A DNA stretch of 64,000 nt from positions 1,106,658 to 1,170,657 of the forward strand of contig CAWJYM010000009.1 of assembly GCA_963847125.1 (NCBI GenBank). The letters are read 5' to 3'. Positions 1,024-41,930 of the stretch are shown here, piece by piece (position 1 is the first letter of the stretch; the number at the start of each line of letters is the position of its first letter). The position numbers were made by a program, and so were the translations under genes. The stretch comes from an uncultured Acidobacteriota bacterium (GTDB taxonomy: Bacteria; Acidobacteriota; Vicinamibacteria; Vicinamibacterales; 2-12-FULL-66-21). Under the pieces are notes generated by a model that searched no databases, was not told the DNA's origin, and saw only the letters and a program-made list of their open reading frames with translations.

Positions 1024-4000
1024 ATGAAGATTCTCTATGTAGCAAACGACCGCCGCGCCGCGCAGCTCGTTGTCAACGCTCTCCGAGTTCACGCACCGGA
1101 CGCAACGCTGGCTTCGACCGAAAGCCTGCTGGACGCTGAACGCTGGGTTTCCGCCAACCGGGACCTCACCGCGCTCGTCGTCGATGCCGAGGTGCAGAAT
1201 CAGAGCGCCGCATCCTTCGTGCGGCACGTTCGCGGTCTCGGACTCACGGCACCGATCATCGTCGTCGCATCGGAGGCGACAGGGACGCCGAGTGCGGTGC
1301 TCAAAGCCGGAGCGGACGACTTCGTCACCGCCGGCGACTCCCTCTCTACCGACTTGCCGGACGTTGTCGGCCGGACGCTGAAGCGGCGTGCGGCGGCCCA
1401 GCCGTCCGGGCAAACGCTGCGGATCCTGTACGCCGGCGATGCCGCGCTCGCGCGGCAGAGCCTTGCGCACCCCGCGTGGTCGATCGAGATCGCCGAAGCC
1501 GTCCTGACGCCGGAAGAACCGTTTCAACCGATTCCGGCAGATTTTCCTGAGACAGGGGAACCGCTTCCCTTCGACATTCTTTTCGTCGAACACGACCACC
1601 CGGCGGTCGATGCGTTCTCGGTTCTCAAGCACATTGCCGACCGCGGGCTGCAGGTCCCCGTCATCGTCGTCGTCGAGTGGGATGACGCGCTCGGCCTCCC
1701 GGCGCTCAAGCTCGGCGCCGCGGACTGCGTGGTGAAGTCAGCCGAGGCGTTCCGCGCGCTGACCTACAGGCTCGATCGCCTCTTCGCCGTACAAGCCCAG
1801 GATGACCGCGCTCAGCGCGAGCTCGAAGCGGCGCGCCAGAGCTGGGAAGAAACCCGGACGAAGCTGGAGACGTCGGCGGCGGCAGAGGCCGCGGCCGCGG
1901 CCGAGCAGCGCGCGCGGCGAGAAACGGACCTGTCCGAAGCCAGCGCGGCGCGGCGCGCGCTCGAACGGCGGCTGGCCGACGTGGAAGCCGCTCTTCACGA
2001 GGCCACCGCAACCGCATCGACCGAGCTCGCGGCCGCCCGGCAGCAGTCGGCGCAGCTCGAGGCGGACCTGGAGGACCGGCTCGCGCAGGAGGTCGCCGCC
2101 CGCAAGACCGCGGAGCACAACCTGGCGCACGCGGACGCATTGTTCCGGGAAACCGAACAGCGGCGGGCCGCGGAAGCGTCATCCTCGGCCAATCTCCTCG
2201 GCCGGCGCGCCGCGGAGCTCACGGCCAGCCTCGCGCACGCCACCCGCTCGCGCGACACGATCATCCTGCAGCTCAGCGACGCCGAGTCGGCGCTCGAAGA
2301 ATCCCGGAAGGAGCGCGCCCGGCAGGAAGCCGAGCTCGCCGCAGCCGCGGCCGCGCGACAGGCGCTCGAACGCCGGCTCGCGGAGGCGGATGCGAACCTT
2401 CAGCAGGCAACCCGGCGCGCGGCGGCCGACCATGACGCGGGTGTGCAGCGGGAAGCGTCCGCGCGCCAGGCGGCCGAAGCACGCTTGGCGGATGCGGAAG
2501 CAGAGCGCGCGGACGATGAGCAACGGTACGCGTCGGAGCAGAGAGCCGCAACGAAGCAGCTGGCCGAGCGTCAGGCACAGCACGACGCGAGCCTCGCGCA
2601 AGCTGCGGCCGCCCGGGACGTTCTCGAACGGCGGCTGGGCGACCTCGAGGCGGAATTCGATCGATCGCGGCAGGATCGAGCGGCAGAGGCCGCCGCAGCA
2701 GCCGAGCAGCTGACGCGGCGCGAAGCGGATCTCGAGCAGCGGCTCGGTCGGGAAGTGTCCGCGCGCCAGGCGGCCGAAGCACGATTGGCGGATGCGGAAG
2801 CAGAGCGCGCGCACGATGAGCAACGGTACGCGTCGGAGCAGAGAGCCGCAACGAAGCAGCTCGCCGAGCGCCAGGCACAGCATGAAGCGAGCCTCGCGCA
2901 AGCTGCGGCCGCCCGGGACGCTCTCGAACGGCGGTTGAGCGACCTCGAGGCTGAACTCGATCGATCGCGGCAGGATCGGGCGGGAGAGGCCGCCGCAGCA
3001 GCCGAGCAGCTAACGCGGCGCGAAGCGGATCTCGAGCAGCGGCTCGGTCGGGAAGTGTCCGCGCGCCAGGCGGCCGAAGCACGATTGGCGGATGCGGAAG
3101 CAGAGCGCGCGCACGATGAGCAACGGTACGCGTCGGAGCAGAGAGCCGCAACGAAGCAGCTCGCCGAGCGCCAGGCACAGCATGAAGCGAGCCTCGCGCA
3201 GGCCGCGGCCGCCCGGGACGTTCTCGAACGGCGGTTGAGCGACGTCGAGGCGGAGCTCGATCAGTCGCGGCAGGATCGAGCGGCAGAGGGCGCCGCCGCA
3301 GCCGATCAGCTGACGCGGCGCGAAGCGGAGCTCGAGCGGCGGCTCGCTCAGGAAACCTCCACGCGCCAGGCGTTCGAAGCGCGGTTGGCAGAGGCGGAGA
3401 CGGAACGTGAGGCTGCCGACGAACGGCATGCGGCGGAGCGGACGACGGCGGCGGCGCAGCTTGCCGAGCGTCACGCGCAGTACAACACGGGCCTGGCCCA
3501 GGCCGCGGCCGCTCAGGACGTCCTCGAACGACGTCTGAACGACGCCGCGGCGGCGCTCGAACAGTCCCGAACGGATCGAGCCGCGGAGGCCATCTCCGCG
3601 GCCAAGCGGTTGACGCAGCGCGAAGCGGAGTTGTCGGAACTGCTCGCGCGGGAAGCGTCCGCGCGCCAGGCGGACCTCAGAGATGTCACGGCCACTCGGG
3701 CCGCGCTCGAACGCCGGCTGGCCGAGGCGGAGGACGAGCTTCAGCAGGCCGGCCAGCGACTGCTCGCGGAACGCGCGACCGTCGTCCAGCTCACTCAGCA
3801 TCACGCGCAGTACGACGCGACGCTGGCTCAGGCGGCCAGCGCCCGGGAAGCCCTCGAACAGCAGTTGAAAGATGCCGCCGCCGCGCTCGAACAGTCCAGA
3901 AAGGACCGAGCCGCCGAAGCTGCGGCGGCCGCAGAGCAGCTGACGGGGCGCGAACACGGAGCTGAAGGGACGGCTCGCACAGGAAGTCGCCGCCCGTCAG

Positions 4001-4488
4001 GAGCTCGAGGCGCTGCTGGCGGACGCGCACCTGGCGCGCGAGGAGGAGAGACAGAGGCTGACGTCCGAGTTGACGACTGCCGCGACGTACTTCTCCGAAC
4101 GCCAGGCCGAGCACGACGTCCACCTGGCGCAAGCGGCGGCGTCGCAGGCCGCGATGGAAAAGGAGCTCGTGGCCGCGGTCGACGCGGCGCGGCGCGACCA
4201 CGCTGCGGCAGCCGCCGCGGCGGCCGACGAGCTCGCACGGCGCGACGCGGAGCTCGCCACCGCCGCCGCAAGCCGCGACGCGTTGAAACGCCAGCTCGCC
4301 GATGCCGAGGCCGCGGCCAGGGCGGGCGACGAGCGCGCGGCGGAGGCCGTTTCCGCGCGCGACGCGGCCATGCAGCAGGCGGCGCTCCGCCAGGCGGAGC
4401 TCGAAGCGCAAGTCGCACAAGGACTCACCGACCGTCAGGCGATCGAGCTGGACCTCGCGAAAGCGCAGGCCACCCACCACGAGGTTGA
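1024..4488 (+). CDS. N-terminal part of a giant signalling protein: receiver domain, degenerate second receiver, then a long Ala/Glu/Arg/Gln coiled coil. The meaningful frame ends near 3955 (frameshift); the 3956-4488 tail is out-of-frame Arg/Gly/Pro sequence
   Basis: Receiver pattern MKILYVANDR ... ALVVDAEV ... IIVVAS ... LKAGADDFV. Second receiver-like block LRILYAGD ... ILFVEHDHP ... LKLGAADCVVK. A 100-aa periodic repeat runs from about 1800 onward, and its register continues in frame 2 from 3944. Confidence 0.8.
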   Translation: MKILYVANDRRAAQLVVNALRVHAPDATLASTESLLDAERWVSANRDLTALVVDAEVQNQSAASFVRHVRGLGLTAPIIVVASEATGTPSAVLKAGADDFVTAGDSLSTDLPDVVGRTLKRRAAAQPSGQTLRILYAGDAALARQSLAHPAWSIEIAEAVLTPEEPFQPIPADFPETGEPLPFDILFVEHDHPAVDAFSVLKHIADRGLQVPVIVVVEWDDALGLPALKLGAADCVVKSAEAFRALTYRLDRLFAVQAQDDRAQRELEAARQSWEETRTKLETSAAAEAAAAAEQRARRETDLSEASAARRALERRLADVEAALHEATATASTELAAARQQSAQLEADLEDRLAQEVAARKTAEHNLAHADALFRETEQRRAAEASSSANLLGRRAAELTASLAHATRSRDTIILQLSDAESALEESRKERARQEAELAAAAAARQALERRLAEADANLQQATRRAAADHDAGVQREASARQAAEARLADAEAERADDEQRYASEQRAATKQLAERQAQHDASLAQAAAARDVLERRLGDLEAEFDRSRQDRAAEAAAAAEQLTRREADLEQRLGREVSARQAAEARLADAEAERAHDEQRYASEQRAATKQLAERQAQHEASLAQAAAARDALERRLSDLEAELDRSRQDRAGEAAAAAEQLTRREADLEQRLGREVSARQAAEARLADAEAERAHDEQRYASEQRAATKQLAERQAQHEASLAQAAAARDVLERRLSDVEAELDQSRQDRAAEGAAAADQLTRREAELERRLAQETSTRQAFEARLAEAETEREAADERHAAERTTAAAQLAERHAQYNTGLAQAAAAQDVLERRLNDAAAALEQSRTDRAAEAISAAKRLTQREAELSELLAREASARQADLRDVTATRAALERRLAEAEDELQQAGQRLLAERATVVQLTQHHAQYDATLAQAASAREALEQQLKDAAAALEQSRKDRAAEAAAAAEQLTGREHGAEGTARTGSRRPSGARGAAGGRAPGARGGETEADVRVDDCRDVLLRTPGRARRPPGASGGVAGRDGKGARGRGRRGAARPRCGSRRGGRRARTARRGARHRRRKPRRVETPARRCRGRGQGGRRARGGGRFRARRGHAAGGAPPGGARSASRTRTHRPSGDRAGPRESAGHPPRG
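2440..3350 (+). repeat. Three near-identical 300-bp (100-codon) in-frame tandem repeats inside the coiled-coil region
   Basis: 2761-2880 and 3061-3180 are base-for-base identical. 2701-2760 versus 3001-3060 differ at one base. 2461-2580 differs at a few positions. More diverged copies of the same 100-aa unit extend from about 1800 to 5300. Confidence 0.95.
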
Positions 4489-6643
4489 ACGCCGACACGC
4501 GGCGGAGCTGGGCACGTCGGCGGCGCAGATCGCCGAGCTCGAAGCCGCGCGCAAATCGCTCCAGGACCGGCTCACCGAGACCGAAACCGGGATTCGGGCC
4601 ACACAGGAGCGCGCGGCGGCCGAACGCGCCGAGGCTGACCAACAGGCTGCGGCGCGGCAGGCGGAGCTCGAGGTGAGGCTCGCACAGGATGGAGCCGAAC
4701 GCCGCACGCTCCAGGCCAAGCTGGAGGAATCGGCCGCATCCGCCGATCTGCTCACGCAGCGGGGCGCGGAGCTCACGGCCAGCCTGGCGCACGCAGGCCG
4801 ACTGCGCGAGACGCTCGAGCAGCAAGTGAGCGACGCGGCGGCGGCGCTCGAAGAAGCCCAGCGGACCCGGACGTCCGACGCCGAGGCGTACCTCCGGCAG
4901 GCGGCCATCCGGAAAGCGGAATTCGAGGAGCGGCTTCGACAGGAGGCGACGGCGCGCGCTCGGTTCGAACGCGATCTCGCGGCGACGCGGCAGACCTCCG
5001 AGCAGGACAAACGACGCTTCGATGACGACATCGCCAGGGTGCAGGCCGACGCTCGCGATCGCGAGACGCGCCTCGAGGATCGGCTCGCTCGCGAGCGGGA
5101 CGACCACGCACGCGCGCTCGCCGAGGCTCAGGAGGTCGTCCGGCACCTGCAGGCCGGGCGCGACGCGCTTCAGCAGTCGCTCGGCGAAGCCGAGACGCAG
5201 CGGGAGCGCCTCGAGCGCGCTCGACTGGCGGGTCAGGCCGAGCTCGAGCGCGCCGCGCGCGAGCATGCCGCGGGGCGCGCGCGGCTCGAAGCGCTGGTGA
5301 CCGAGCGGGAATCGCAGCTGCGCGAGCAGTCGTCGGGCCATGCGGCCTCTCTGGCGGCCGCGAAGAAGCTGATCACTCAAAACGAGGCGCGGGTCGCCGC
5401 GCTCAACCAGGAGCTCGTGGCCGAGAAGAGCGGGCGCGCGGCGCTTCGCGCTCAGGCAGACGCGGTCCCGGCCCTGAAGACCCAGCTCGAAGAGAGCCAG
5501 GCCGAGAGCCGGCGACGGTTCGAGCAGAACCCGCACGGCATGTGCCGGTGCAACCGCGAGGGGGCGCTCACCCAGGCGAACCGCGCGCTGGCGAGCCTGC
5601 TCGGCTATCGAACGAGCGATGACTTGCGAAGGGTGAACGTCGCCACGGCGGTCTTCGAATCCGCAGACGACCTGCGATGGCTGATCGACCGCTGCCTGAG
5701 CACGGGCACGCCCGAGTCGGTCGAAACGACGTGGAAGAGAAAGGACGGAGACCGGTTGATCGTGAAGCTGCTGGCGGTCGCGGCGGCGCCAGACGCGATC
5801 GAAATCGTCGTGGAGGACCTCACGACCCGCCGCGGTCTCGAAGAACGGCTGCGCCAGGCTCAACGCATGGAGGCGGTCGGGCGGCTCGCGTCGGAAGTCG
5901 CGGTCACCTGCGACAACCTGCTCCGGGACGTCAGCCAGGACGGCGAACAGTGGCTCGCGACGATCGACGGCAACACGGCGCTCCGGCACCGGGCCGAGCA
6001 GCTGCTGGCCGAAGTGACCCGCGCCGGCCACTTCCTGCGGCAGCTTGCGGCGTACGGCCGGAAGCAGACGCGCGCGCTCGAGCCGGTCAACGTGACCACG
6101 GTGATGCGCGACATGGAGCCCGTCCTGAAGCGCGTGGCGGGCGACGACATCGAGCTGCTGCTGCCGAAGACCACGCGCCCGGTGAACGTCGACGTCGAAG
6201 CGGAGCGTGTCGAGCGGGTCCTGGTCAACGTGGCCAGCTACGCGCGCGAGCGGATGCCGTCAGGCGGCCGACTGAAGATCGAGCTCGCGTCGGTCGTCGT
6301 CGATGGGCGGTTCATCGCAAAACACCCCAACGTCCGGCCGGGCGCCCACGTCCTGATCACGGTCACCGAGGTGCGTGAGGCCGCGCGCCTCGCCCCGCCG
6401 GGCGCTGCACACAGCGAGCCGGCCGCGGCCGCCGTGAGCCCGGCGTCGGACAAACCTGGCGTCGATCTCGGGGCGCTCCTGAAGCTGATCGCCGACTGCG
6501 GCGGCCACCTGTGGATGACGGCGGAGCCTCCCGGGAACATGATCCTGAAGATCCACCTGCCGAAGCGGACCTCGGACGACCCTCGTCCGGTCGTGACGCG
6601 ATCCGAGCGGGGCGGGTCGATGTCCCGCTGGTTCGGTCACTGA
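4070..6643 (+). CDS. C-terminal part of the same giant protein: coiled coil, PAS-like block, DHp-like helix and HATPase_c-like domain with degenerate catalytic motifs. The frame is open from 3944; 4070 is only the first Met
   Basis: Frame-2 translation from 3953 (TELKGRLAQEVAARQELEALLADAH) continues the upstream repeat. NPHGMCRCNREGALTQANRALASLLGY looks PAS-like. The H-box region reads MEAVGRLASEVAVTCDNLL with no His. The N-box region reads ERVLVNVASYARERMPSGGRLKIEL with no Asn. Confidence 0.8.
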   Translation: MTTAATYFSERQAEHDVHLAQAAASQAAMEKELVAAVDAARRDHAAAAAAAADELARRDAELATAAASRDALKRQLADAEAAARAGDERAAEAVSARDAAMQQAALRQAELEAQVAQGLTDRQAIELDLAKAQATHHEVERRHAAELGTSAAQIAELEAARKSLQDRLTETETGIRATQERAAAERAEADQQAAARQAELEVRLAQDGAERRTLQAKLEESAASADLLTQRGAELTASLAHAGRLRETLEQQVSDAAAALEEAQRTRTSDAEAYLRQAAIRKAEFEERLRQEATARARFERDLAATRQTSEQDKRRFDDDIARVQADARDRETRLEDRLARERDDHARALAEAQEVVRHLQAGRDALQQSLGEAETQRERLERARLAGQAELERAAREHAAGRARLEALVTERESQLREQSSGHAASLAAAKKLITQNEARVAALNQELVAEKSGRAALRAQADAVPALKTQLEESQAESRRRFEQNPHGMCRCNREGALTQANRALASLLGYRTSDDLRRVNVATAVFESADDLRWLIDRCLSTGTPESVETTWKRKDGDRLIVKLLAVAAAPDAIEIVVEDLTTRRGLEERLRQAQRMEAVGRLASEVAVTCDNLLRDVSQDGEQWLATIDGNTALRHRAEQLLAEVTRAGHFLRQLAAYGRKQTRALEPVNVTTVMRDMEPVLKRVAGDDIELLLPKTTRPVNVDVEAERVERVLVNVASYARERMPSGGRLKIELASVVVDGRFIAKHPNVRPGAHVLITVTEVREAARLAPPGAAHSEPAAAAVSPASDKPGVDLGALLKLIADCGGHLWMTAEPPGNMILKIHLPKRTSDDPRPVVTRSERGGSMSRWFGH

Positions 6644-10460: not shown

Positions 10461-11531
10461 GCGCCTTCTCCCTTGGGGTTCTTGGGGTTCTTGGGGCGAC
10501 GGAAGATAGAGATTCGCGAGGCCGAGCCGGATCGAATCGATATCGACGTCATTGAGGTTCATCAGGACGATGATCGTCAGCCGATCGTCCACGAACCGCG
10601 CGAATTCGGAGCGAAAACCGGGCATCCCGCCGCTGTGATGGACCACCTTTCGACCTCGGACCTCACCAAGTTCCCAACCGAACCCGTACGGAGAAGTGGC
10701 GCCGTCGTTCAGCCTCGCCGGAGCCCACATCTGGCGGCGGGAGGCCTCGCTGAGAATTCTGTCGGTGTCGAGCATGGCGTCCCACTTCGCCAGATCCAGC
10801 ACCGTCGACAGGAAGGCGCCGCTCGGACGCAGCGCCGGCCAATCGTCGGCGTTCCGCAGCGTGTCGTTGTCGGCGTAGCCCTGGGCCCGTTTCGGGAGAC
10901 TCACTTTCGTGTTGGTGGGGAAGGTCGTGTTCATGCCGGAGGGCTTGAAGACCTTGTCGGTCAAGTACTCGGTCCATGGCCGGCCGGACACCTTGCTGAT
11001 GATCTCGGCGAGCGCGAAGTACCCGGTATTGCAGTATTCCCACTTCTCGCCCGGCGCGAATCGCAGCGGCCGGGGGTAGGCGGTCTCGAGGAGATCGGCG
11101 TCGCTCTGAATCGTGAAGGGATCGAATCCCGGGGCCTCGCGGAGGAGGCCTGACGTGTGGGTCAGGAGATGCCGGATCGTGATGGCGTTCCACGCCGCCG
11201 GTGTCTCTTCGAGGTACCTGCTGATCGGATCATCGACGCTGAGCCGGCCTTCCTGGGCAAGCAGCATGATGCCGGTCGCGATGAACTGCTTGCTCACGGA
11301 GGCGATTCTGTAGACCGTTTCAGGTGTGGCGGGCGTTTTGAGCGCGATATTCGCCAGGCCATACCCTTCGGACTTGATGATCGTCCCGTCCTTGATGACG
11401 ACGAGGGAGAGACCCGGAATATTCTGGCGCTTCATCTCGGCCCTGACGTAGTCGTCTGTCTTGTCCGCCCGCGCGACAGCCGGGGCAAGCAACAACAGGA
11501 GAACGAACACGGGGATACGTGCAGGCCGCAT
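9411..11531 (-). CDS. Beta-lactamase-family serine hydrolase. Only 10470-11531 looks like the protein; there is no in-frame stop until 9411, so the ORF runs antisense through the neighbouring gene
   Basis: ATG at 11531. Signal peptide MRPARIPVFVLLLLLAPAVARA. SxxK motif in YRIASVSKQFIATG. About 352 aa of family-like sequence ends in LANLYLPSPQEPQEPQG at 10470-10500. Downstream of that the translation is Arg/Asp/Val-rich shadow sequence opposite the CRTAC1 gene. Confidence 0.75.
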   Translation of the reverse strand: MRPARIPVFVLLLLLAPAVARADKTDDYVRAEMKRQNIPGLSLVVIKDGTIIKSEGYGLANIALKTPATPETVYRIASVSKQFIATGIMLLAQEGRLSVDDPISRYLEETPAAWNAITIRHLLTHTSGLLREAPGFDPFTIQSDADLLETAYPRPLRFAPGEKWEYCNTGYFALAEIISKVSGRPWTEYLTDKVFKPSGMNTTFPTNTKVSLPKRAQGYADNDTLRNADDWPALRPSGAFLSTVLDLAKWDAMLDTDRILSEASRRQMWAPARLNDGATSPYGFGWELGEVRGRKVVHHSGGMPGFRSEFARFVDDRLTIIVLMNLNDVDIDSIRLGLANLYLPSPQEPQEPQGRRRLRDGREILPLHALIGPSRRDVLELIRPSARPAHDDAIDAIPFADAKRHRKLRLREIARSALDDARLRRAVVEDAHGRANRVPVRLGPDEPDSQASIPSRVIVPKKDRGAVVGRHEQIDVAVAVEVAVGEAASDPGLGESAADVARDVAEAAFPVVQEELCGLRVAQVAADVPHGVVDVAVDDDEIERAVEVDIREDAAEPEPVARREADAGLRGHVLIPAGAVGAVEPDHLSLEVRDRQPDPSGTVDLGDVDTHACASLAVLAEGGARLDRHVHEPAVPLVAIQLVRLGVVGDEDVRPAVLVVVDHRDAERLRARVEEATRRGDVLERAVAPISEQPARVAAVRLRRTV

Positions 11532-11545
11532 CGCGATGTCCCTCT

Positions 11546-11815
11546 TCACCTTAGAACCAATACGGCGGCCGCGCGCAGGAACAGGCCGACCAGGAGCCCG
11601 AGGATCAGCGCGGCGCCGCCGTAGACGATCACATACGGGGGCGCCTCCATCGGCCGTGTGACGATTCCCGGCGCGAGATACAGGAGCGCCGTGCCGAGGC
11701 CGCACAGCCCCGCCTCGAGCGCGGCGACATCTCCGGGCGTGTACTCATGCCGACTGACCACAAAATGGCGCTGGTCACTGTTTCGATCGTCAGGAGACCT
11801 TTCCATCCCCCTCAC
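11546..11815 (-). CDS. Possible small two-TM membrane protein (hypothetical)
   Basis: ORF only. Hydrophobic stretches GLCGLGTALLYLAPGIV and YVIVYGGAALILGLLVGLFL. No recognisable family. Ends 15 nt upstream of the hydrolase start. Confidence 0.3.
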   Translation of the reverse strand: MRGMERSPDDRNSDQRHFVVSRHEYTPGDVAALEAGLCGLGTALLYLAPGIVTRPMEAPPYVIVYGGAALILGLLVGLFLRAAAVLVLR

Positions 11816-12428
11816 GGCCTGCCCGCGATTGATAAAGTCGGATCAGCCATTTGGGAGCTCTCAGCTCACGGAGTTTGGTCACAGCCCGATCGTGGAACGC
11901 CTCGCGCGTCCACACGACTGGATCGGACTGAAGCTGGGCGTGTGCTTGCTCAATGAGCGCCTGGCCGTCCGGTAACCGCGACGCGAACGCGATCTCGGCC
12001 TTGAAGCACACGCGCTCGATACGCACGCGCATTTCGGGTTCATAGCCAAAGCCCGCACGGAACAGCCGGGCATGTGTCGCCTCGTGGACGATGATTGAGG
12101 CGACGTGAACGGCGGAGACCTCCTGTTTTAGCAGATGGCTCCTATCAAGAACGCAGAGCTGGGCCCAGTAGTGATACTCGGCGTGGTTGCCTCCAGTCTC
12201 CGTTATCCACAGGCCGCGTAGATCGCGTTTGAGACGTGCAAACCGAGCCGGATTGTACTGGTCAATCAGCCGGACGGCGTCACACACCTTGTCAAATAGC
12301 ATCCGGCGCTCGCAGGCGTCAGAGAGTAGACAGCGGACCTCTATCCCGCAACATCGTCGGCGCGCCGATAACGCAAAGAGAAAACGTGTAGTCCAGATGC
12401 GTAGCCTCGAGCGAAGCGTCTGTGGCAT
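11790..12428 (-). CDS. Hypothetical protein with an HExxH zinc-metallopeptidase-like motif
   Basis: 212-aa ORF in a visibly lower-G+C stretch. Motif ASIIVHEATHARLF. No family recognised from sequence alone. Confidence 0.5.
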   Translation of the reverse strand: MPQTLRSRLRIWTTRFLFALSARRRCCGIEVRCLLSDACERRMLFDKVCDAVRLIDQYNPARFARLKRDLRGLWITETGGNHAEYHYWAQLCVLDRSHLLKQEVSAVHVASIIVHEATHARLFRAGFGYEPEMRVRIERVCFKAEIAFASRLPDGQALIEQAHAQLQSDPVVWTREAFHDRAVTKLRELRAPKWLIRLYQSRAGREGDGKVS

Positions 12429-12549
12429 ACGCCCTCGTGACGGCGCTGGCTGATTGCGGGCCTAGCGATCCTCTCTGTCGTCTTCCGGATCATAGAGGAT
12501 GCCGCGGTATTCCCCAGTCAGCTCCGCGTCCGGCGGGACCATTTGTCAA

Positions 12550-13875
12550 CGCCGGCTGGCACCGATGTTGTGCCAACGGAAACTCGGTCCTGGACCGAGT
12601 CGTCCAGCCAAGACTTTTCCGCCGAGTCGACATCGACACCTCTTGACACGTTTTCGAGCGCGCTCGACTTACCGCGCGAGGCTCCGCTCACTTTCCGCTC
12701 TCCTCGTGCGCAGGGTGTCCGCTGCGCAGCCTTCGGACCTCAGTCCGACGAAGACGTCGACCTCGCGATCGATCGCAGCCGTGGTGACCAGCCTGCGTCT
12801 CAAACATCGCAGTGTTATAACGCGATATGACGACGTTCACTCAATCGTTCGCTCACTTGTCCAATCACGATCTCCTCGACCTGGTGAAGCAGCTCGCTGC
12901 CGCCGAGCGCCAGGCGACGGTATGCCTCATTGCGTCGCTGATGGAAGTCGACGCACGCCGGCTTTATCTCGGTGAAGGGTGCTCATCGCTCTTCACGTAC
13001 TGCACCCAGGTGCTGCACCTTTCCGAACATGCCGCGTACGGACGCATCGAGGCGGCGCGCGCGGTCAGACGCTTTCCCGAAATCTTGGAGCTGCTGGCCG
13101 AAGGAGCGATCACCCTTACGGCGGTCGGCCGCCTCGCGCCGCATCTAACCGACGCCAACCATGTGGAGCTTCTGAACTCCGCTCGGCACAAGACCAAGCG
13201 GGAGGTCGAGCAGCTCGTCGTACATCTCCATCCTCGGCCCGATGTACCGTCGTCGATTCGAAGACTTCCGACACCGAAGATTCGCGCGTCTTCGCAAGCG
13301 CCCGCAGGTGATGCCTTGCCTGGCGGGGATCGTCGCGAACTTGGCCCCCCGGCCCCGACACCCTCGAACGCGCCCGCTGTCCTGGCCCCACTCGCACCCG
13401 AACGCTACAAGGTTCAGTTCACCGTGGGTCGCGAAACGTACGAAAAACTGCGCCGGGCCCAGGATCTGTTGCGCCACACTATCCCGGGCGGCGATCCGGC
13501 CGCGGTCATCGATCGGGCCCTGACTGTGCTCCTCGCAGAGCTCGACCGGACCAGACTGGCCGCGACGGATCGGCCGCGGAGCCGCCTTCGCGCTGCGCGC
13601 TCCGGCGCCCAAGGAGCCAGTCCCACGCGTCACATTCCCGCCGCGGTGAAGCGAACCGTCTGGGCGCGCGACGGAGGGCGGTGCGCCTTTGTCGGGAACA
13701 CGAGACGCTGCGCGGAGACCGGCTTTCTCCAATTCCATCATGTGGTGCCATACGCGAGAGGTGGCCCATCCGTCGTCGAGAACATCGAGCTTCGATGCGC
13801 CGCTCATAACGCGCACGAGGCGGAGTTGTGCTTCGGTCCCCGACAGCCGACGCTCATGCGGGAGACTGCTCCACT
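12550..13875 (+). mobile_element. HNH-endonuclease selfish element, full-length copy (structured 5' leader + DUF222-like/HNH ORF)
   Basis: Both ends are defined by homology to the miniature copy at 14262-14427. The 5' block 12559-12640 contains hairpins GGCAC-N7-GTGCC and ACTCGGTCC-T-GGACCGAGT. The 3' block 13790-13875 contains the end of the HNH motif. Confidence 0.6.
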
Positions 13876-13984
13876 GTATGCTTCAATCGCACGCACTACC
13901 ATGGTGCGGCGGCGCACGACGGAAGGGCGGGTCTGGCCATCGAGGACGCACCGTTCGGCGGCGTCAGGGTTGGTCGCGAACTGA
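12827..13984 (+). CDS. HNH endonuclease with a DUF222-like N-terminal domain (REP13E12-type architecture)
   Basis: N-terminus LSNHDLLDLVKQLAAAERQATVCLIASLMEVDARRLY. C-terminal HNH core RCAFVGNTRRCAETGFLQFHHVVPYARGGPSVVENIELRCAAHNAHEAE. TATAAC at 12816-12821 lies 5 nt before the ATG. Confidence 0.85.
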   Translation: MTTFTQSFAHLSNHDLLDLVKQLAAAERQATVCLIASLMEVDARRLYLGEGCSSLFTYCTQVLHLSEHAAYGRIEAARAVRRFPEILELLAEGAITLTAVGRLAPHLTDANHVELLNSARHKTKREVEQLVVHLHPRPDVPSSIRRLPTPKIRASSQAPAGDALPGGDRRELGPPAPTPSNAPAVLAPLAPERYKVQFTVGRETYEKLRRAQDLLRHTIPGGDPAAVIDRALTVLLAELDRTRLAATDRPRSRLRAARSGAQGASPTRHIPAAVKRTVWARDGGRCAFVGNTRRCAETGFLQFHHVVPYARGGPSVVENIELRCAAHNAHEAELCFGPRQPTLMRETAPLYASIARTTMVRRRTTEGRVWPSRTHRSAASGLVAN

Positions 13985-14209
13985 TCGATCGACCGTTGGG
14001 TGGTGACGAACTGCCATTGCTCCGGGCCGCCGAAGTCCCGATGCATGACGTCGACAGTCGGCACTCCGACCGCATCGAAGTAATAGCAGCGAACGCCCGG
14101 CAGGGCCCGGGCCTCGAGAGACCTGTACGACGGTCGTCTTGCCGGCTCCCGAAGCGCCGGTGACCACAAGGATGGCTGGGGCACTCACAAAGTTTGAGCA
14201 GCTGAGCAC
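13876..14209 (-). pseudogene. Fragment of a small P-loop NTPase gene: +1 frameshift near 14124 and 3' truncation at the HNH-element boundary
   Basis: Walker A SAPAILVVTGASGAGKTTVV in one frame. It continues in the next frame as RSLEARALPGVRCYYFDAVGVPTVDVMHRDFGGPEQWQ ... CVLDGQTRPS. Only about 110 codons remain. Confidence 0.6.
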
Positions 14210-14261
14210 ACTGAGAAAACCTGGGACGGGGCGCGACTAAATCTGGGTGCAGCCAGTTGCG

Positions 14262-14427
14262 GCCGACGGATGGCACCGATCTCGTGCCAACCCGGAACTC
14301 GGTCCTGAACCGAGTCGTCCAACCAATACTTTTTCACCGAGGACACTTCGATGCGCCGCTCAGCCCGCGCACGAAGCGGAGTCATGCTTCGGTCCCCGCC
14401 AATCGCCGCTCATGCGGGAGACCGCTC
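14262..14427 (+). mobile_element. Miniature, internally deleted derivative of the HNH element (5' leader joined directly to the last ~80 bp)
   Basis: 14271-14350 aligns to 12559-12640 and both hairpins are conserved. 14345-14427 aligns to 13790-13875 (LRCAA.. AHEAE.CFGPRQ..LMRETA). About 1.15 kb of interior sequence is missing. Confidence 0.7.
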
Positions 14428-14439
14428 TACCGGACGTTC

Positions 14440-14530
14440 TTCCTTCCTCTGTGCCTCTGTGTCTCTGTGTCTCATCGTCCCCGCCTTTCTCTGCGTCTCC
14501 TCGTCCTCTGTGTCTCCGCCGCAAGCCCGT
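14440..14530. repeat. CTCTGTG/CACAGAG-rich dispersed repeat, also present inverted at 41760-41875
   Basis: 14461-14499 is the reverse complement of 41772-41810 with one mismatch in 39 nt (hand comparison). It overlaps the 3' end of the YjbR-like ORF. Confidence 0.8.
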
Positions 14531-14855
14531 GCGCGTGCGCCAGCCGCTCCGCGACTTCGGACCACTTCGGCCGGCGATCCAGGAAGACGCCAATCCACCC
14601 CGCCACGCCGGCATAGGGCGGCACGAAGTACCGTTCGGGAGATCGGGACACGAGGAGATCCTGCGTCGTGTGCGTGGCCTTGCACCACACGGCGTGACGC
14701 CCTGCGCCGTGGTGATTGTTCGCGTTCGCGAAGCTCGCGAACATCCGCTTCCCGACCCAGAACGTCGGCTCGCCGTGCGAGATCTTCTCCCAGGTATCCG
14801 GCAGCGCCAGGCACACCCTGCGCAGTTTCTCGAGTGGGCTACGTTCAGTACGCAA
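14472..14855 (-). CDS. MmcQ/YjbR-family protein; the C-terminal tail is encoded by the dispersed repeat
   Basis: LEKLRRVCLALPDTWEKISHGEPTFWVGKRMFASF is typical of the YjbR fold family. The last ~20 codons (AAETQRTRRRRERRGR) lie inside the repeat at 14440-14530. Confidence 0.65.
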   Translation of the reverse strand: MRTERSPLEKLRRVCLALPDTWEKISHGEPTFWVGKRMFASFANANNHHGAGRHAVWCKATHTTQDLLVSRSPERYFVPPYAGVAGWIGVFLDRRPKWSEVAERLAHAHGLAAETQRTRRRRERRGR

Positions 14856-14887
14856 TCAGCATCCCCTGCGGCTATTCGCCGCGCCAG

Positions 14888-15643
14888 CTACCGGCCGCCG
14901 GTGACGTCGATGAAAGCGCCGGTCGTAAAGGAGGCTTGGTCGGAGAGCAGCCAGAGGATGGCGTGCGCGACTTCTTCAGGCTGTCCTCCGCGCCTCAGTG
15001 GAACGAGCGCCTTCACTCGCTCGACGCGATCCGGCTCGCCACCGCTCGCGTGCATCTCGGTGTAGATGTAGCCCGGGCGCACCGCGTTCACTCGTATGGC
15101 CTCCGCCGCCACTTCTCGCGCGAGACCGATCGTCAGCGTGTCGATCGCGCCTTTGGACGCGGCATAGTCCACATACTCCCCTGGCGAACCCAGGCGGGCG
15201 GCCCCGGACGACACGTTGACGATGGCGCCGCCCTTCCCGCCGTGGCGCGTCGACATGCGTCGCACGGCCTCGCGGGCGCACATGAACGCTCCTACGACGT
15301 TCGTGGAGAAAATGCGATGCAGCCGTGGGGCATCCATTTCGTCGACGCGCATCTGGGTTTCGAGAATGCCGGCGTTGTTGACGAGTCCCGCCAGAGTCCC
15401 GAGGGCGTCCGCCGCCTCGAACAGCCGCATGACGTCCGCTTCAGCCGATACGTCCGCCTGCATCGCGATCGATCGCGAACCCCCAGCCTCAATCGCACGC
15501 ACCACCTTGTCGGCAGCCTCACTGTCCGAGCGATAGTTCACGCAGACGGTATAGCCGTTCGCGCCCAGCAGCCGCGCGGTGGCTGCGCCGATGCCACGAC
15601 TGCCGCCCGTCACGATCACGACTTTGTTGATGGGGGTGGCCAT
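14888..15643 (-). CDS. Short-chain dehydrogenase/reductase (classical SDR)
   Basis: ATG at 15643. TGGSRGIG cofactor motif, NNAG, catalytic YAASKGA. The start overlaps the upstream stop by one base (TGATG at 15641-15645). Confidence 0.9.
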   Translation of the reverse strand: MATPINKVVIVTGGSRGIGAATARLLGANGYTVCVNYRSDSEAADKVVRAIEAGGSRSIAMQADVSAEADVMRLFEAADALGTLAGLVNNAGILETQMRVDEMDAPRLHRIFSTNVVGAFMCAREAVRRMSTRHGGKGGAIVNVSSGAARLGSPGEYVDYAASKGAIDTLTIGLAREVAAEAIRVNAVRPGYIYTEMHASGGEPDRVERVKALVPLRRGGQPEEVAHAILWLLSDQASFTTGAFIDVTGGR

Positions 15644-16281
15644 CAGTACGCAACGAGCCTTCCCTGCGGCCACTCGCCGCGCCACCCGCACGGAAAGTGC
15701 CCGGCGCCGTACACCGACAGCAGTTCCAAGAAGAAAAAGCAGCGATGTCCGCTTCCGAGGTAGCTGTTTTCCATGAGCGCGCCCAGCACGTCCCACTGGA
15801 GGGAATGGACAACCGCGATGTCCAGGCCTCGGGACTGCTGGTAGGGGATCCACTTCTCGTCGGTCAGCCGGTCAAGTATCGCTGCCTTGTGCTCGGCGAC
15901 GACCGTGTTCCAGTTCTGATAGTTCTTGCGGTCGTGCTGATGCAGCCAGACAGTGAGCTGGTTCCGGGCCTCGAGTTCGACGTTCTCCCACACGCCATCC
16001 GCGCAACTCTCGACGGCCTCGGGCCAGCTGGATACCTGGTCGACCGTCATCGAGAGGTCGAGCGCCATCGGCTCGCCGCAGTGGGCGAACCAATCGATCG
16101 CGCGCAGCGTTGTGGCCAGGTCTCTCGGAGCGAAGTCTCGCTTCGAAACGAATCCGGGCGCCGGACTCTCCACCGAGTCGAGGATCGGCGCGTTCAGCAA
16201 CCGGGCCAGCTCTTCCGTCTCACCCGGCGTCAGCCGGCCGGTCCGCCCCTTCGCCAGCAACTCCGCGAACCGTTCGTCCAT
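15643..16281 (-). CDS. Hypothetical protein, translationally coupled to the SDR
   Basis: ORF with ATG at 16281 (MDERFAELLAKGRTG); an upstream alternative start exists at 16332. No recognisable motifs. Divergent from the kinase gene. Confidence 0.5.
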   Translation of the reverse strand: MDERFAELLAKGRTGRLTPGETEELARLLNAPILDSVESPAPGFVSKRDFAPRDLATTLRAIDWFAHCGEPMALDLSMTVDQVSSWPEAVESCADGVWENVELEARNQLTVWLHQHDRKNYQNWNTVVAEHKAAILDRLTDEKWIPYQQSRGLDIAVVHSLQWDVLGALMENSYLGSGHRCFFFLELLSVYGAGHFPCGWRGEWPQGRLVAY

Positions 16282-16343
16282 TCGCGCTCTTCTGCTCCGC
16301 CGCCCGCGCCACGCGACGCCGGTATAATCCAAGCCGCAATCAC

Positions 16344-19007
16344 GTGAGCCTCAAGGTCGGTTCGCGAGTTGGACCCTACGACGTCGTGTCGCTCATCGGC
16401 AGAGGCGGCATGGGGGAAGTCTACCGGGCGCGCGACACGAAACTCAAACGCGACGTCGCGCTGAAGGTGCTGCCCGACCAGTTCATCGCCGATCACGATC
16501 GGCTCGCGCGATTCCAGCGCGAAGCCGAGGTCCTCGCCTCACTCAATCATGCCCGCATCGCGAGCATCTACGGCGTCGAAGAAGCGAATGGCGTGCAGGC
16601 GCTCGTGCTGGAAATGGTCGAGGGGCCTACACTCGCCGACCGGATCGCGCTCGGCCCCATCCCGCTCGACGAGGCGCTGCCTATCTCGAGCCAGATCGCG
16701 GACGCCCTCGAAGCGGCGCACGAGCATGGAGTCATTCACCGCGACCTGAAGCCGGGCAACATCAAGGTCCTGCCGGACGGCTCGGTCAAGGTCCTGGACT
16801 TCGGTCTCGCCAAGGTCCTCGACCCCGATGTCGACGGGAGCGGCCACTCTCAGTCCCCCACCATCACGAGCCCCGCCATGACGCGGATCGGCGTCGTTCT
16901 CGGCACCGCCGCGTACATGAGTCCAGAGCAGGCCCGTGGCAGGGGCGTCGACAAGCGATCGGACATCTGGGCGTTCGGCTGCGTGCTGTACGAGATGCTC
17001 ACGGGCTCTCGCGCGTTCGAAGGTGGCGAGGTCTCCGACACGCTGGCGTTCGTGATCACGAAGGAACCGGACTGGAGCGCGCTGCCGTCAGGTCTTCCGC
17101 CAGCTGTCGTCGCTCTGTTGCGTCGGTGCCTGCAGAAAAGCGCACGCCTCCGGCTGCGCGATATTGGCGACGCCCGGCTCGCGGTCGACGACGCGCTGGC
17201 CCAGCTCGGCGCTGGTACGCAGGAGGGTTCACTCGTCGCCGACGCGCGGACACCCGGTCGCAGGACGCTTCGTTGGATCTCCCTCCCTCTCGTCGCGCTT
17301 ACGGCGATCGGTTTGACTCTGGTATCGATGCCACGACGCCCTGAAGTGCCTGCCGCACGTCCGACGCGCCTCGTGCTGCAGCTGCCGGCGGGCGACGAGC
17401 TGGCGTTCGGGGAAGCTGCACCGGTCGGCGAGGGTCGGCCCTCGGTCGCGATCTCACCCGACGGCACTCGCATCGTCTACGTCGGCCGGCGCGCCGGCAG
17501 CGTGCGGCTCTACCAGCGTCCGCTCGACTCATTCGACTCCACGGCAATCGCGGGCACGGAGGGTGCCTTCAATCCCTTCTTTTCGCCGGACGGGCAGTGG
17601 ATCGGGTTCTTCACGAACACGCATCTGAAGAAGGTCCCCGTCTCTGGCGGCACCCCGGTCACGCTCTGCGAGGCACGCAACCCGTACGGTGCCACGTGGT
17701 CGCGCGACTCCATCTTCTTCGCCCAGGTGTTCGGCACGGCTCTTTCGCGCGTCCCCGCGGCTGGTGGCGCCGCGGAGGTTGTGCGATCAGAGGGCGGCCA
17801 GAGATTCTGGCCTTTCAGTGTTCCGGACGACGACGCGTTGCTGGTGTCGGGATGGCCGGCCGGAATTCATCTCGTGCGATTGAACGACCGTGAAGGTGGT
17901 GACCGGATCATCGCACGAACCTACACGAATGCCCGCCTCACCCCGACGGGGCACATCATCCTCGTGCGTCCAGGACAGCTCATCGCCGCGCCGTTCGATC
18001 GGGCGCGCTGGGAAATCGTTGGCACCGAGACGCCGATCCTCGCCGGACTGCGGACCGAATCGTGGGGGGGCGGACACTTTTCATTCTCGCAGGAGGGCAC
18101 GCTGGCGTACGTGCAGGGCGCTCCCGCGACGACCGGATCGCTGGTGTCGCTCGATCGCGCTGGCCACACGGCGCCGATGCCCGGATTCGGAGCTGGCTAT
18201 TTCGGGGCGATCAAGTTGTCTCCCTCCGGCGAGAAGCTCGCGATTATCGTGACCGAAGCCACCAGCGAGCTCTGGGTCTACGACCTCGCACGGGGCACAC
18301 GCACGCGGCTGAATACGACCGCCAACAGCGGTCACCCCTTGTGGACGCCCGATGGCAAATGGGTCATGTTCAGCTCGTCCGAAGGCGGCGCCTGGAACAT
18401 CTTCCGGCAGCCGGCCGATGGGTCCGCGCCGCCGAGCCGTCTGGTCTCGAGCGCCAACAATCAGATCCCGTACGCCTGGTCGCCGGATGGCCGGGTTCTG
18501 GCCTATAGCGAAGTGGATCCGACCACTCGAGGCGACATCTGGCTGTTCTCGGAATCAGATCGCAAGCCGCGGCCGCTCCTCAAGAGTGGCGCCAGCGAAA
18601 CTCAACCCGCCATTTCGCCGGACGGCGCGTGGCTCGCCTATGTGTCGGATGAATCCGGCAAGTCGGAAGTGTACGTGACGAGCTATCCAGACGTCCGCGG
18701 TCGTACCCTGATCTCATTTGATGGCGGAGAGGAGCCTATCTGGTCGCGGGACGGCACAGAGCTCTTCTATCGCAACGGCCAACGCTGGATGAGCGTGACG
18801 GTTTCGACGCGGCCGACATTCGACGCGGGCCGGCCTCGCATGATCTTCGAAGGCAACTACCTCAACGTATCGGGCCTTTCCTACGACGTGAGCGCCGACG
18901 GAAGACGATTCGTCCTGATTCGCGGGCTGGACGCTCCGCCCGCGCGCGAAATCCATGTCGTGCTCAACTGGTTTGAAGAGGTGAAACGCCTCACCGGCAC
19001 ACCGTGA
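16344..19007 (+). CDS. Ser/Thr protein kinase fused through one TM helix to a TolB/PD40-type beta-propeller
   Basis: GTG start. GRGGMGEVYRARD ... VALKVL ... HRDLKPGNIKV ... DFGLAK ... YMSPEQ. Repeated SPDG blades (ISPDGTRIVYV, FSPDGQWIGF, WTPDGKWVMF, WSPDGRVLAY, ISPDGAWLAY). TATAAT at 16323-16328. Confidence 0.92.
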   Translation: MSLKVGSRVGPYDVVSLIGRGGMGEVYRARDTKLKRDVALKVLPDQFIADHDRLARFQREAEVLASLNHARIASIYGVEEANGVQALVLEMVEGPTLADRIALGPIPLDEALPISSQIADALEAAHEHGVIHRDLKPGNIKVLPDGSVKVLDFGLAKVLDPDVDGSGHSQSPTITSPAMTRIGVVLGTAAYMSPEQARGRGVDKRSDIWAFGCVLYEMLTGSRAFEGGEVSDTLAFVITKEPDWSALPSGLPPAVVALLRRCLQKSARLRLRDIGDARLAVDDALAQLGAGTQEGSLVADARTPGRRTLRWISLPLVALTAIGLTLVSMPRRPEVPAARPTRLVLQLPAGDELAFGEAAPVGEGRPSVAISPDGTRIVYVGRRAGSVRLYQRPLDSFDSTAIAGTEGAFNPFFSPDGQWIGFFTNTHLKKVPVSGGTPVTLCEARNPYGATWSRDSIFFAQVFGTALSRVPAAGGAAEVVRSEGGQRFWPFSVPDDDALLVSGWPAGIHLVRLNDREGGDRIIARTYTNARLTPTGHIILVRPGQLIAAPFDRARWEIVGTETPILAGLRTESWGGGHFSFSQEGTLAYVQGAPATTGSLVSLDRAGHTAPMPGFGAGYFGAIKLSPSGEKLAIIVTEATSELWVYDLARGTRTRLNTTANSGHPLWTPDGKWVMFSSSEGGAWNIFRQPADGSAPPSRLVSSANNQIPYAWSPDGRVLAYSEVDPTTRGDIWLFSESDRKPRPLLKSGASETQPAISPDGAWLAYVSDESGKSEVYVTSYPDVRGRTLISFDGGEEPIWSRDGTELFYRNGQRWMSVTVSTRPTFDAGRPRMIFEGNYLNVSGLSYDVSADGRRFVLIRGLDAPPAREIHVVLNWFEEVKRLTGTP

Positions 19008-30152: not shown

Positions 30153-30419
30153 TCATCTGCCGCTGTGAGATCGAAGGTTGAACCAGAAAACAAACGTCAG
30201 CTTGTTACCGCCGCGGAACTGCAACTCCAGACTGCCGCTTCCACGTTTCACGCGGAGAACCAGCCCATCGCACAGACCTATGTCGGTCCATAGTCGACGC
30301 GGGTCGTCCGGCGGGCTCGGTCCGAGCGCCGCCAGATGTGCTTCGTACGCCGCGTTCATTTGATTGGCCTCCACATCCGGTAGATCGCCCCGGAGCCACG
30401 CTTTCGTAAAGAACTTCAG
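30153..30419 (-). pseudogene. Truncated paralogue of the 41231-41753 gene (DUF4085-like N-terminus); no ATG, and divergent/short after ~60 aa
   Basis: LKFFTKAWLRGDLPDVEANQMNAAYEAHLAALGPSPPDDPRRLWTDIGLCDGLVLRVKRGSGSLELQFRGGN aligns to the second copy. Similarity is lost after GGN and a stop follows 15 codons later. Confidence 0.6.
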
Positions 30420-30539: not shown

Positions 30540-31094
30540 TGACGTCGCGCGCCAACCGACCACCTCGCGGGCGGCTAGTGGGCGTCACCACTTGTTTGAC
30601 ACACTGGCCTTCAGCGCCACGATGTCGACCGCTTGCTCCGCGACGGATGTGTTTTCGGGCGACGGTTCTTCTTCGAGCTGCCGCAGCAGCTTGGCTTGAT
30701 CGAGCTCACCTGGTAGTGCTCGCCCAGCCAGCGGACCACCTCGCGGCGGCCGGTGGGCGTCACCACTTTTTTGACACCACCGCTTTCAGCGCCACGATGT
30801 CAAGGGCCTGCTCCGCGACGATGTGCTTCAAGCGGCGGTTTTCTTCCTCGAGCTGCTGCAGCCGCTTGGCTTCATCGAGCTGCAGACCGCCGAACTTGGG
30901 CTTCCACTCGTAATAGGTGTTCTTGTGGACCTCGTAGGCGCGGCACAGATCCTCGACCTTCCGGCCGGCTTCCCCTTCGCGGAGAATCTTGAGGATTTGC
31001 TCCTCATGAATCGACTCCGTCGCATCGTCCCTCCTCGGGAGAGAGTGCGGCGCAGTCACAGTCTAGGCTGGGTCAGTTTTGAGGGGGCAGGTCA
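30540..31094 (-). mobile_element. IS3-family insertion-sequence remnant: left inverted repeat, orfA, frameshift site, first ~20 codons of orfB, plus a tandem ~185-bp partial duplication; no DDE domain
   Basis: The terminal sequence TGACCTGCCCCCTCAAAACTGACC (minus strand) ends at 31094. Slippery heptamer A-AAA-AAG at 30766-30772. 30558-30740 is a degraded repeat of 30742-30900. Confidence 0.8.
30760..31059 (-). CDS. IS3-family transposase OrfA (HTH/leucine-zipper protein)
   Basis: EEQILKILREGEAGRKVEDLCRAYEVHKNTYYEWKPKFGGLQLDEAKRLQQLEEENRRLKHIVAEQALDIVALKAVVSKKW is the classic IS3/IS407-group OrfA, ending at the frameshift window. Confidence 0.9.
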   Translation of the reverse strand: MTAPHSLPRRDDATESIHEEQILKILREGEAGRKVEDLCRAYEVHKNTYYEWKPKFGGLQLDEAKRLQQLEEENRRLKHIVAEQALDIVALKAVVSKKW

Positions 31095-41753: not shown

Positions 41754-41797
41754 GAAGACACGGAGGGACGTGAGACACAGAGAAAGGCGGGGACGAT

Positions 41798-41869
41798 GAG
41801 ACACAGAGACGCAGAGCCACACAGGTAACCCAAAGATGTGAAAAGGCCTTCTCTGTGTCTCTGTGTCTC
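41798..41869. repeat. Long hairpin within the CACAGAG repeat element: 19-bp arms (one mismatch), 34-nt loop
   Basis: gagacacagagacgcagag (41798-41816) pairs with ctctgtgtctctgtgtctc (41851-41869). The adjacent 41772-41810 is shared with 14461-14499. Confidence 0.8.
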
Positions 41870-41930
41870 GGTGCCTCTTCGTCCCCGATCTTCTCAGCGT
41901 GCTCAATCAGCTCTGCGTGCTCAGCGCGCT

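Follow-up and report, generated by a model that had tools for sequence, protein, structure and literature searches.

A palindrome-bounded HNH nuclease cassette, probably selfish, and its decayed paralogue in an Acidobacteriota genome

The stretch of DNA analyzed here, hereafter the window, comprises 64,000 nucleotides of contig CAWJYM010000009.1 from an uncultured Acidobacteriota bacterium and carries two related copies of a unit built around a gene for an HNH nuclease, namely, a full copy A (12550 to 13984) and a shortened copy B, or mini copy, of 181 nt (14250 to 14430). On balance, we favor the reading that the full copy is a selfish, palindrome-bounded HNH cassette of about 1.3 to 1.4 kb belonging to a large cross-phylum family, that the shortened copy is a decayed paralogue, and that such cassettes would spread by cutting at the palindrome followed by homing-like conversion. 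Cassettes of this family are bounded by a conserved, perfect palindrome of 18 to 22 bp, preceded in the lineage of the window by a TGGCAC-N7-GTGCCA hairpin, and each carries a single open reading frame (ORF) headed by a conserved TTGACA box and by an extended −10-like motif that directly adjoins the ATG. Copy A is intact except that its downstream two-hairpin module has been lost, while copy B is the dead remnant of a diverged paralogue, deprived of the promoter motifs and of 321 codons.

The presence of a full HNH unit together with a shortened one joining both of its ends, reported in a preliminary description made from the sequence, was confirmed by pairwise alignments, by a repeat finder run on the 64-kb window, and by pattern searches. 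The 5′ block of copy A (about 12550 to 12636) returns at 14250 to 14341 with about 85% identity in pairwise alignment, and the 3′ block (13790 to 13874, plus strand), which corresponds to the last 28 conserved codons of the gene, returns at 14346 to 14430 with 86% identity and is also recovered by the repeat finder as family D17. In a pattern search tolerating 3 mismatches, either block occurs exactly twice in the window, with 0 occurrences expected from shuffles. Copies A and B share one orientation and are separated by 380 bp. The shortened one lacks about 1.16 kb, a gap that begins some 12 nt before the TTGACA box and runs to codon 321. The mini copy had been placed at 14262 to 14427; the copy is real, but its homology starts about 12 nt further left, at 14250.

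On the plus strand, copy A opens with a weakly conserved 5′ edge (12540 to 12556; CCAGTTGCrGCCGACG-like in relatives), an extension common to the mini copy and to the loci L181, L140, and L156, and according to megablast its homology with the closest relative, L181, begins at 12550. The first hairpin or palindrome, T-GGCAC-CGATGTT-GTGCC-A (12557 to 12575), is near-invariant in 20 distinct two-hairpin modules. It is followed by the boundary palindrome ACTCGGTCC-T-GGACCGAGT (12582 to 12600), for which pattern searches in related loci gave the family consensus CA-ACTCGGTCCGGACCGAGT-TG, and, on the plus strand, by a post-module segment (12601 to 12636) of which the first 26 nt (12601 to 12626) are kept in the mini copy according to pairwise alignment. 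Further downstream on this strand lie the TTGACA box (12643 to 12648; family consensus AAAAnnCTTGACAnGTTTT in related loci), located about −184 from the ATG and deleted in the mini copy, the extended −10-like motif TGnTATAAC (12813 to 12821), located 5 nt before the ATG, and the HNH nuclease ORF of 385 amino acids (12827 to 13984). Relatives of the encoded protein are about 350 amino acids long, and the conserved part of the window ORF stops near 13876, which is the end of the 3′ block.

The boundaries of the cassette were examined in 80 relatives which were fetched by protein similarity and are hence unbiased as to hairpins. The family palindrome, ACTCGGTCC(N0-1)GGACCGAGT, measures 18 nt and often reaches 22 nt through a CA...TG extension. 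Of the protein-selected loci that could be assessed, 25 of 56 carry it upstream of the gene (−214 to −326) and 26 of 55 at the ORF's 3′ terminus or immediately beyond, while 5 of 42 loci have it at both ends and 11 of 42 at neither; it is also found alone in intergenic DNA of related loci. Compensatory variants (ACTGGGTCCGGACCCAGT, ACTCGTTCCAGGAACGAGT, ACTCTGTCCGGACAGAGT, and ACTCGGTTCGAACCGAGT) keep its symmetry, and locus-specific complementary flanks extend some palindromes, with at least 4 extra pairs in 14 of 142 cases versus 1.9% in the control and up to 16 extra perfect pairs (L175, 410 to 460; L118, 3368 to 3404; L198; L133). Beside the palindromes of the orthologous loci L035 (2704) and L055 (888), the flanks carry compensatory changes. 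To judge from these sequences, the flank extensions suggest that hairpins may be extruded and corrected by templating in vivo. Paralogous units located in unrelated contexts align exactly from palindrome to palindrome (L004, 482 to 1887, versus L035, 2703 to 4109; L010 versus L035; L060, 1637 to 3016, versus L069, 357 to 1739), and the cassette is therefore a discrete unit, about 1.4 kb long, that brings its palindromes along.

Only a minority of loci, from some lineages, have the GGCAC hairpin beside the palindrome, on either side relative to the gene, and the two-hairpin module is thus an autonomous DNA unit. Complete elements of the window's subfamily have this module at both ends. In L209, the upstream module lies at about 667 to 710 and the downstream module begins 12 nt after the conserved C terminus, while the paralogue P0002 reads through its downstream module, so that its tail contains ...GTDVVPTRSSVRTG.... 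In L151, a palindrome (1700 to 1717) is found in frame within the variable linker of an apparently intact HNH ORF (1141 to 2310, minus strand). The HNH subfamily with palindromes at both ends adjoins tRNA genes, being located 90 to 120 nt upstream of one or about 40 nt downstream (tRNA genes at L004, 1997 to 2073; L010, 4205 to 4293; L013, 8 to 84; L015, 4210 to 4286; and L035, 4222 to 4299); the identities of these neighboring tRNAs differ (Ile, Tyr, Val, and Asp), and their positions suggest that this subfamily prefers the neighborhood of tRNA genes.

A pattern scan of one genome per species gave at least 119 stretches, per-genome counts being lower bounds. Among the matches listed, once tRNA-Pro anticodon arms and AT-rich terminators were set aside, the palindrome is present in Acidobacteriota (Vicinamibacterales and Thermoanaerobaculia), Armatimonadota, Elusimicrobia, Thermodesulfobacteriota, Myxococcota, and others, often with several palindromes per genome. 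An HNH gene of the family adjoins at least about 25 stretches, the other matches listed being solo palindromes, and in Elusimicrobia and Eisenbacteria the palindrome accompanies HNH proteins only 32 to 41% identical to the query. Solo palindromes share the CA...TG extension. In Armatimonadota and Eisenbacteria, tandem palindromes occur 45 to 50 nt apart (L112, 1881/1926; L146, 235/280; L206, 5218/5268; L131; L165), each followed by a GACCCA-N4-TGGGCTAGA-like motif, and in one Armatimonadota genome the solos sit in a longer shared repeat with TAAGGGAAC units. In L196 (2440 to 2513) and L176 (1890 to 1945), a solo palindrome followed by the family's CTTGACAnnTTT box stands directly upstream of nadE and of a GH57-like gene, respectively, and may be the 5′ end of a cassette left behind as a promoter. 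The palindrome core ACTCGG-TCCGGA-CCGAGT is nearly identical to the anticodon arm of Acidobacteriota tRNA-Pro(CGG), ACTCGG-TTCGGGA-CCGAGT (tRNA-Pro-like pattern matches in L096, L121, L125, L126, L134, L137, L159, and L173, compared with window positions 12582 to 12600); this likeness could be a coincidence or a hint of an ancestral tRNA-gene target.

According to our analysis, the protein encoded by copy A consists of an N-terminal helical domain (amino acids 10 to 135), a ribbon-helix-helix (RHH)-like region (about 192 to 245), and an HNH domain (about 265 to 340). The HNH family PF01844 is its sole Pfam match, with 22 bits versus a cutoff of 21.4, and in the family alignment H304, H305, N328, H327, C286, C295, and C324, which comprise the catalytic and metal-binding residues, are invariant; on this basis, the protein belongs to the HNH endonucleases of the ββα-Me type. 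Across 31 family members, Pfam finds HNH in all 31, the CopG-like RHH_5 in 6, and DUF222 (PF02720) in 1, with an E value of 0.097. The gene had been described as DUF222-like, which these matches do not bear out, since the window protein has no PF02720 match; NCBIfam gave no family match either. Searches of NCBIfam, PADLOC, and PHROGs returned the HNH motif only, the PADLOC matches being weak (E values of 0.002 to 0.03) and confined to residues 253 to 337, and the protein was not assigned to any of the anti-phage defense systems known to PADLOC. A tblastn search of plasmids likewise retrieved HNH-domain matches only. In an AlphaFold2 model built from the family alignment, the N-terminal helical domain has a predicted local distance difference test score above 95 and the HNH domain is well modeled, while residues about 194 to 245 form, with low confidence, two helices that would fit a dimeric RHH, with no preceding strand modeled. 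A Foldseek search against the PDB matched the HNH part to the HNH domains of McrA, Cap5, Cas9, and IscB and, weakly, the N-terminal domain to the DNA-binding domains of ParB and Noc (target-normalized template-modeling scores of 0.59 to 0.66; E > 1). Sequence and profile searches place the HNH domain nearest to that of Cas9 and IscB, and profile matches in the PDB are to Cas9, IscB, and McrA.

Purifying selection acts on the HNH gene: the ratio of nonsynonymous to synonymous substitution rates (dN/dS) is 0.18 versus L181 and 0.26 to 0.39 in other full-length pairs. At E ≤ 1e-10 the family numbers over 5,539 proteins; its members occur in several phyla, and decay is frequent. The 1.9-Mb contig that bears the window gene also encodes two paralogues, 75% and 71% identical, and it holds at least three full-length paralogues and one remnant.

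We infer the following route of spread. A dimer of the protein would bind the palindrome through its DNA-binding domains and would nick or cut at or near it; breaks at palindrome sites or paralogues would then be repaired by copying the cassette-bearing copy, in a homing-like gene conversion that would both spread and homogenize the cassettes. Recombination or deletion at the palindromes would leave solo palindromes and truncated remnants such as copy B.

Several observations weigh against this reading. Among 209 loci, no pair of an empty and a filled site was found, so that the case for mobility is drawn from distribution only, and the orthologous pairs found are all occupied. The copies are old, with synonymous divergence (dS) of 0.5 to 0.85, and none are near-identical in different contexts. 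The palindrome is not detectable in 26% of the cassettes, and most cassettes carry it at one end only. Solo palindromes exceed the HNH-linked ones by about 3:1 among the matches listed, and in L156 two direct two-hairpin modules (2580 to 2622 and 3396 to 3438), each just past a stop codon, flank an unrelated AlkD-like DNA alkylation repair gene in an arrangement that is cassette-like without an HNH gene; the palindrome could thus have a life of its own. Recognition of the palindrome by the protein is putative. E exceeds 1 for the ParB-like match, and only 6 of the 31 members gave an RHH match. A comparison of the RHH β-strand with palindrome variants is suggestive at best: three strands of the type YL(I/V)K(V/I)T occur with variant palindromes, and canonical strands do so as well.

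Part of this evidence would equally suit an explanation to which we grant a limited, though real, chance, namely, that the palindrome, whether or not the GGCAC hairpin adjoins it, belongs to the host as an intergenic repeat (REP-like, a terminator lacking a U tract, or an mRNA 3′ stabilizer) unrelated to the HNH activity, the cassettes inserting preferentially beside such repeats or using them as insulating terminators. At least 49 of 62 solo palindromes are non-genic, 23 being located within 150 nt downstream of the 3′ end of a gene, the L156 modules stand just past the stop codons of two successive genes, and downstream palindromes overlap the stop codon of the HNH ORF. However, host repeats and terminators are lineage specific, whereas this palindrome is conserved, alongside HNH proteins of high divergence, over Acidobacteriota, Armatimonadota, Elusimicrobia, Thermodesulfobacteriota, and others; moreover, the palindromes travel with the cassette into new contexts, they are not followed by a T run, a terminator scan gave no matches, and the HNH family is their sole recurrent neighbor among the matches listed.

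The status of the mini copy bears on two further alternatives. Its 5′ part (14250 to 14341, plus strand) consists of the extension (14250 to 14269), the first hairpin (14271 to 14289), the palindrome (14297 to 14315) with a single arm mismatch (GAACC), and the post-module segment (14316 to 14341). The deletion junction, GACA (14342 to 14345, plus strand), was located by direct reading of the sequence and by alignments, and the junction 21-mer is CACCGAGGACACTTCGATGCG. The 3′ part (14346 to 14430, plus strand) retains the last 28 codons of an HNH gene, in which the catalytic HN has become QP, and differs from copy A by synonymous and nonsynonymous changes alike (proportions of 0.23 and 0.11, respectively). 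The 26 nt following its palindrome match the 5′ interior of copy A and are unlike the DNA following the downstream module of L209, so that copy B stems from another element and is more than copy A's downstream module. Since its 5′ extension and hairpin loop are closer to L181, from another genome, than to copy A and its 3′ block has diverged, it is a paralogue which diverged and later lost its interior.

The preliminary description had seen here a selfish element accompanied by an internally deleted, MITE-like (miniature inverted-repeat transposable element) derivative mobilized in trans. The multicopy, selfish-looking unit, its conserved ends, and the internal deletion are all upheld, with the difference that the deletion took place in a second, diverged copy; mobilization in trans of a non-autonomous element by the HNH protein of full copies is, in contrast, unlikely. 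Although both cassette ends are kept with the interior lost, solo modules are dispersed in genomes, and the remnant L093 likewise joins a palindrome to the 3′ end of an HNH gene (codons 281 to 346), the junction configuration occurs once in the window, and L093, with breakpoints unlike those of the mini copy, is the sole comparable case in a systematic fragment search of 208 related loci. This search returned four fragments only (L093, L105, L155, and L102), those other than L093 being 5′-truncated genes. The mini copy keeps the 5′ module, but the downstream module of complete relatives (L209 and the P0002 tail) is absent after 14430, and inspection showed neither a target-site duplication nor direct repeats at its flanks. 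Its divergence from copy A amounts to about 15%, its palindrome has the arm mismatch, and short ACATCGA-like repeats, seen by direct reading of copy A beside both breakpoints of the deletion, fit an ordinary slippage deletion. Palindromes provoke deletions. The mini copy and the other fragments look like independent decay products, and the mini copy is an ordinary one. Decay or replacement of a 5′ end is also indicated by the orthologous occupied loci L075 (2587 to 3018) and L199 (3130 to 3409), where the flanks are 86% and the coding region 79% identical while the upstream region of about 270 nt, where L199 has the palindrome and the TTGACA box, has no counterpart in L075, being either unrelated or lost there.

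A local origin without any mobility, in which the HNH gene was duplicated in tandem long ago and its second copy then diverged and lost its interior, is improbable to a similar degree. It would agree with the spacing of 380 bp, the common orientation, and the lack of an empty site among the loci. Against it stand the L181-like 5′ extension and hairpin loop of the mini copy, the occurrence of the family in many unrelated contexts with sharp boundaries, and the unrelated gene fragment located between the copies. This fragment (13880 to 14209, minus strand), identified from the ORF list and Pfam, encodes part of a P-loop NTPase with the Walker A motif GASGAGKTT and weak AAA and zeta-toxin Pfam matches; as the preliminary description had it, the gene is decayed, being frameshifted and 3′ truncated. 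We considered it as cargo of the element and rejected this, because no P-loop homologue adjoins HNH units in the other loci examined; it is a resident gene outside the element. The composition profile shows no GC anomaly.

The two hairpins had also been interpreted as a structured leader of the HNH gene, for which folding and covariation of the leader were proposed as a check. A TTGACA box with an A tract before it is found at about −184 from the ATG (range, −173 to −202) in 62 of 69 related loci, and a TGnTAyAA motif lies 5 to 7 nt before the ATG in relatives, within a block, GAAAnnGCGATGCTAyAA-N5-6-ATG, conserved in the alignment of 59 loci. TGnTATAAC may act as an extended −10 element giving a leaderless transcript, and the TTGACA box may have a promoter function; a simple sigma-70 scan found no full promoter. 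Both window hairpins are located 43 to 91 nt upstream of the TTGACA box. The region from this box to the ATG has no conserved structure: RNAalifold predicted 0 pairs for 59 upstream regions, and the z score relative to dinucleotide shuffles of the region from −150 to −1 averages −0.2 on both strands in 63 loci. Rfam, searched over 11500 to 15500 at a permissive E value, gave only chance-level matches elsewhere, the plus-strand folds of the hairpin region are unremarkable (z scores of −1.5 to −1.8), and the invariant stem of hairpin 1 offers no covariation. A sigma-54 promoter (TGGCAC-N5-TTGT) was rejected because it would lack the −12 GC and because the module is found in both orientations, and an integron attC site was rejected, by inspection only, on account of its size and the lack of R and L core motifs. 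Hence, a transcribed 5′ leader acting as a cis-regulatory RNA of the HNH mRNA is hardly credible: both hairpins are predicted to fold and their sequence is conserved, but they lie upstream of the conserved box, the palindrome exists at 3′ ends and on its own as well, the module can point either way, and the true 5′ untranslated region is unstructured.

Returning to the palindrome-bounded cassette, we compared it with four known systems. The first is REP13E12, the mycobacterial DUF222-HNH repeat family reportedly described by Gordon et al. in 1999 and said to combine PF02720 with PF01844. The window family likewise forms a unit of about 1.4 kb that is present in several diverged copies in a genome and has a single protein product, helical in its N-terminal region and with HNH at the C terminus, and no transposase or recombinase. 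In M. tuberculosis, the REP13E12/HNH repeats, said to “lack defined biological function,” rank with the strongest hotspots of gene conversion (PMC13061034), and by analogy the proposed homing-like gene conversion would agree with this report, hotspot paralogues fitting nuclease-stimulated recombination. Unlike REP13E12, the window family has no significant DUF222 match, lives in other host phyla, and contains an internal RHH region, so that the resemblance noticed in the preliminary description holds for the architecture but not for DUF222 membership; in the literature searched, we found no description of a boundary palindrome of REP13E12.

REP/REPIN-RAYT systems (REPtrons) are similar in that a nuclease gene has short palindromic repeats, presumably cognate, on its flanks, and further copies of these palindromes are scattered singly between genes, frequently downstream of a gene and at times in tandem. 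However, RAYT is an HUH Y1 transposase encoded by a single-copy, vertically inherited gene, whereas the enzyme considered here is an HNH ββα-Me protein with RHH and helix-turn-helix-like domains, without an HUH family match, encoded by a multicopy, decaying gene; REPs are lineage specific whereas this palindrome is cross-phylum, it has no GTAG/GTGG head, and its copy number per genome looks low. Free-standing HNH homing endonuclease genes share with the cassette a single-gene selfish HNH organization, cycles of spread, decay, and loss, mosaic copies, and possibly target-centered insertion. They differ in that here the palindromes stand intact at one end of the cassette or at both, insertion is not known to split the recognition site, and the family has neither a conserved host-gene target nor demonstrated empty sites. 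IS200/IS605 elements with IscB or TnpB (OMEGA) are similar in the hairpin-forming sequences at their ends and in the HNH domain, but the window family has no RuvC, TnpA, or structured guide RNA; its score against NF040563 is 19.3 bits versus a cutoff of 175, for the HNH part only, and neither an Rfam match to an omega RNA nor a conserved upstream structure was found.

Other repeats of the window are separate from the cassette. At 14439 to 14515, next to the 3′ end of the mini copy, lies a CT-rich repeat, CTCTGTGTCTCTGTGTCTC..., that recurs at 41756 to 41825 and 41851 to 41900 (repeat finder families D15 and I3) and represents a small repeat family of its own; the latter two copies form an inverted-repeat element of about 145 nt (41756 to 41900). 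A tandem 76-nt repeat (30570 to 30645 and 30745 to 30820; 84% identical) resembles IS3-type orfA fragments on the minus strand, judging from unaided reading of the sequence, and a 169-nt repeat (30202 to 30370 and 41520 to 41688; 88% identical) marks two small paralogous regions 11 kb apart. Positions 1800 to 5300 contain a long array of 300-nt tandem repeats (4 copies, 71 to 100% identical) and many related repeats of 35 to 90 nt, all in one long coding region, which on sequence inspection we take to encode an Ala/Glu/Arg-rich coiled-coil protein. Paralogous Ser/Thr kinase-TolB/PD40-type genes share stretches 71 to 73% identical (16363 to 17087, within 16110 to 19007, versus 45616 to 46334), and inverted repeats at 53855 to 53974 indicate a third related copy.

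In the literature searched (full text of a limited collection), no paper came up that connects HNH genes to REP/RAYT-type repeats or describes the palindrome, and the pairing of palindrome and nuclease appears undescribed. To our knowledge, REP13E12-type multicopy HNH genes have been catalogued for 25 years without a mechanism. The family described here has thousands of members in soil Acidobacteriota and other phyla and offers a gene unit with sharp, palindrome-marked boundaries and protein domains that could plausibly bind the palindrome. If cutting of the palindrome by the nuclease drives copying, this would be a new route for the spread of selfish DNA and would give a mechanistic reason for gene-conversion hotspots at such repeats. 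More tentatively, and with considerable reserve, the HNH/RHH family and its 22-bp palindrome may represent an unrecognized prokaryotic mobile system, REP-RAYT-like and present in many phyla, in which the cassette, and maybe the solo modules too, would be spread by an HNH (ββα-Me) nuclease instead of an enzyme of the DDE, HUH, serine, or tyrosine type; if true, this would also explain the long-unexplained REP13E12-type repeats.

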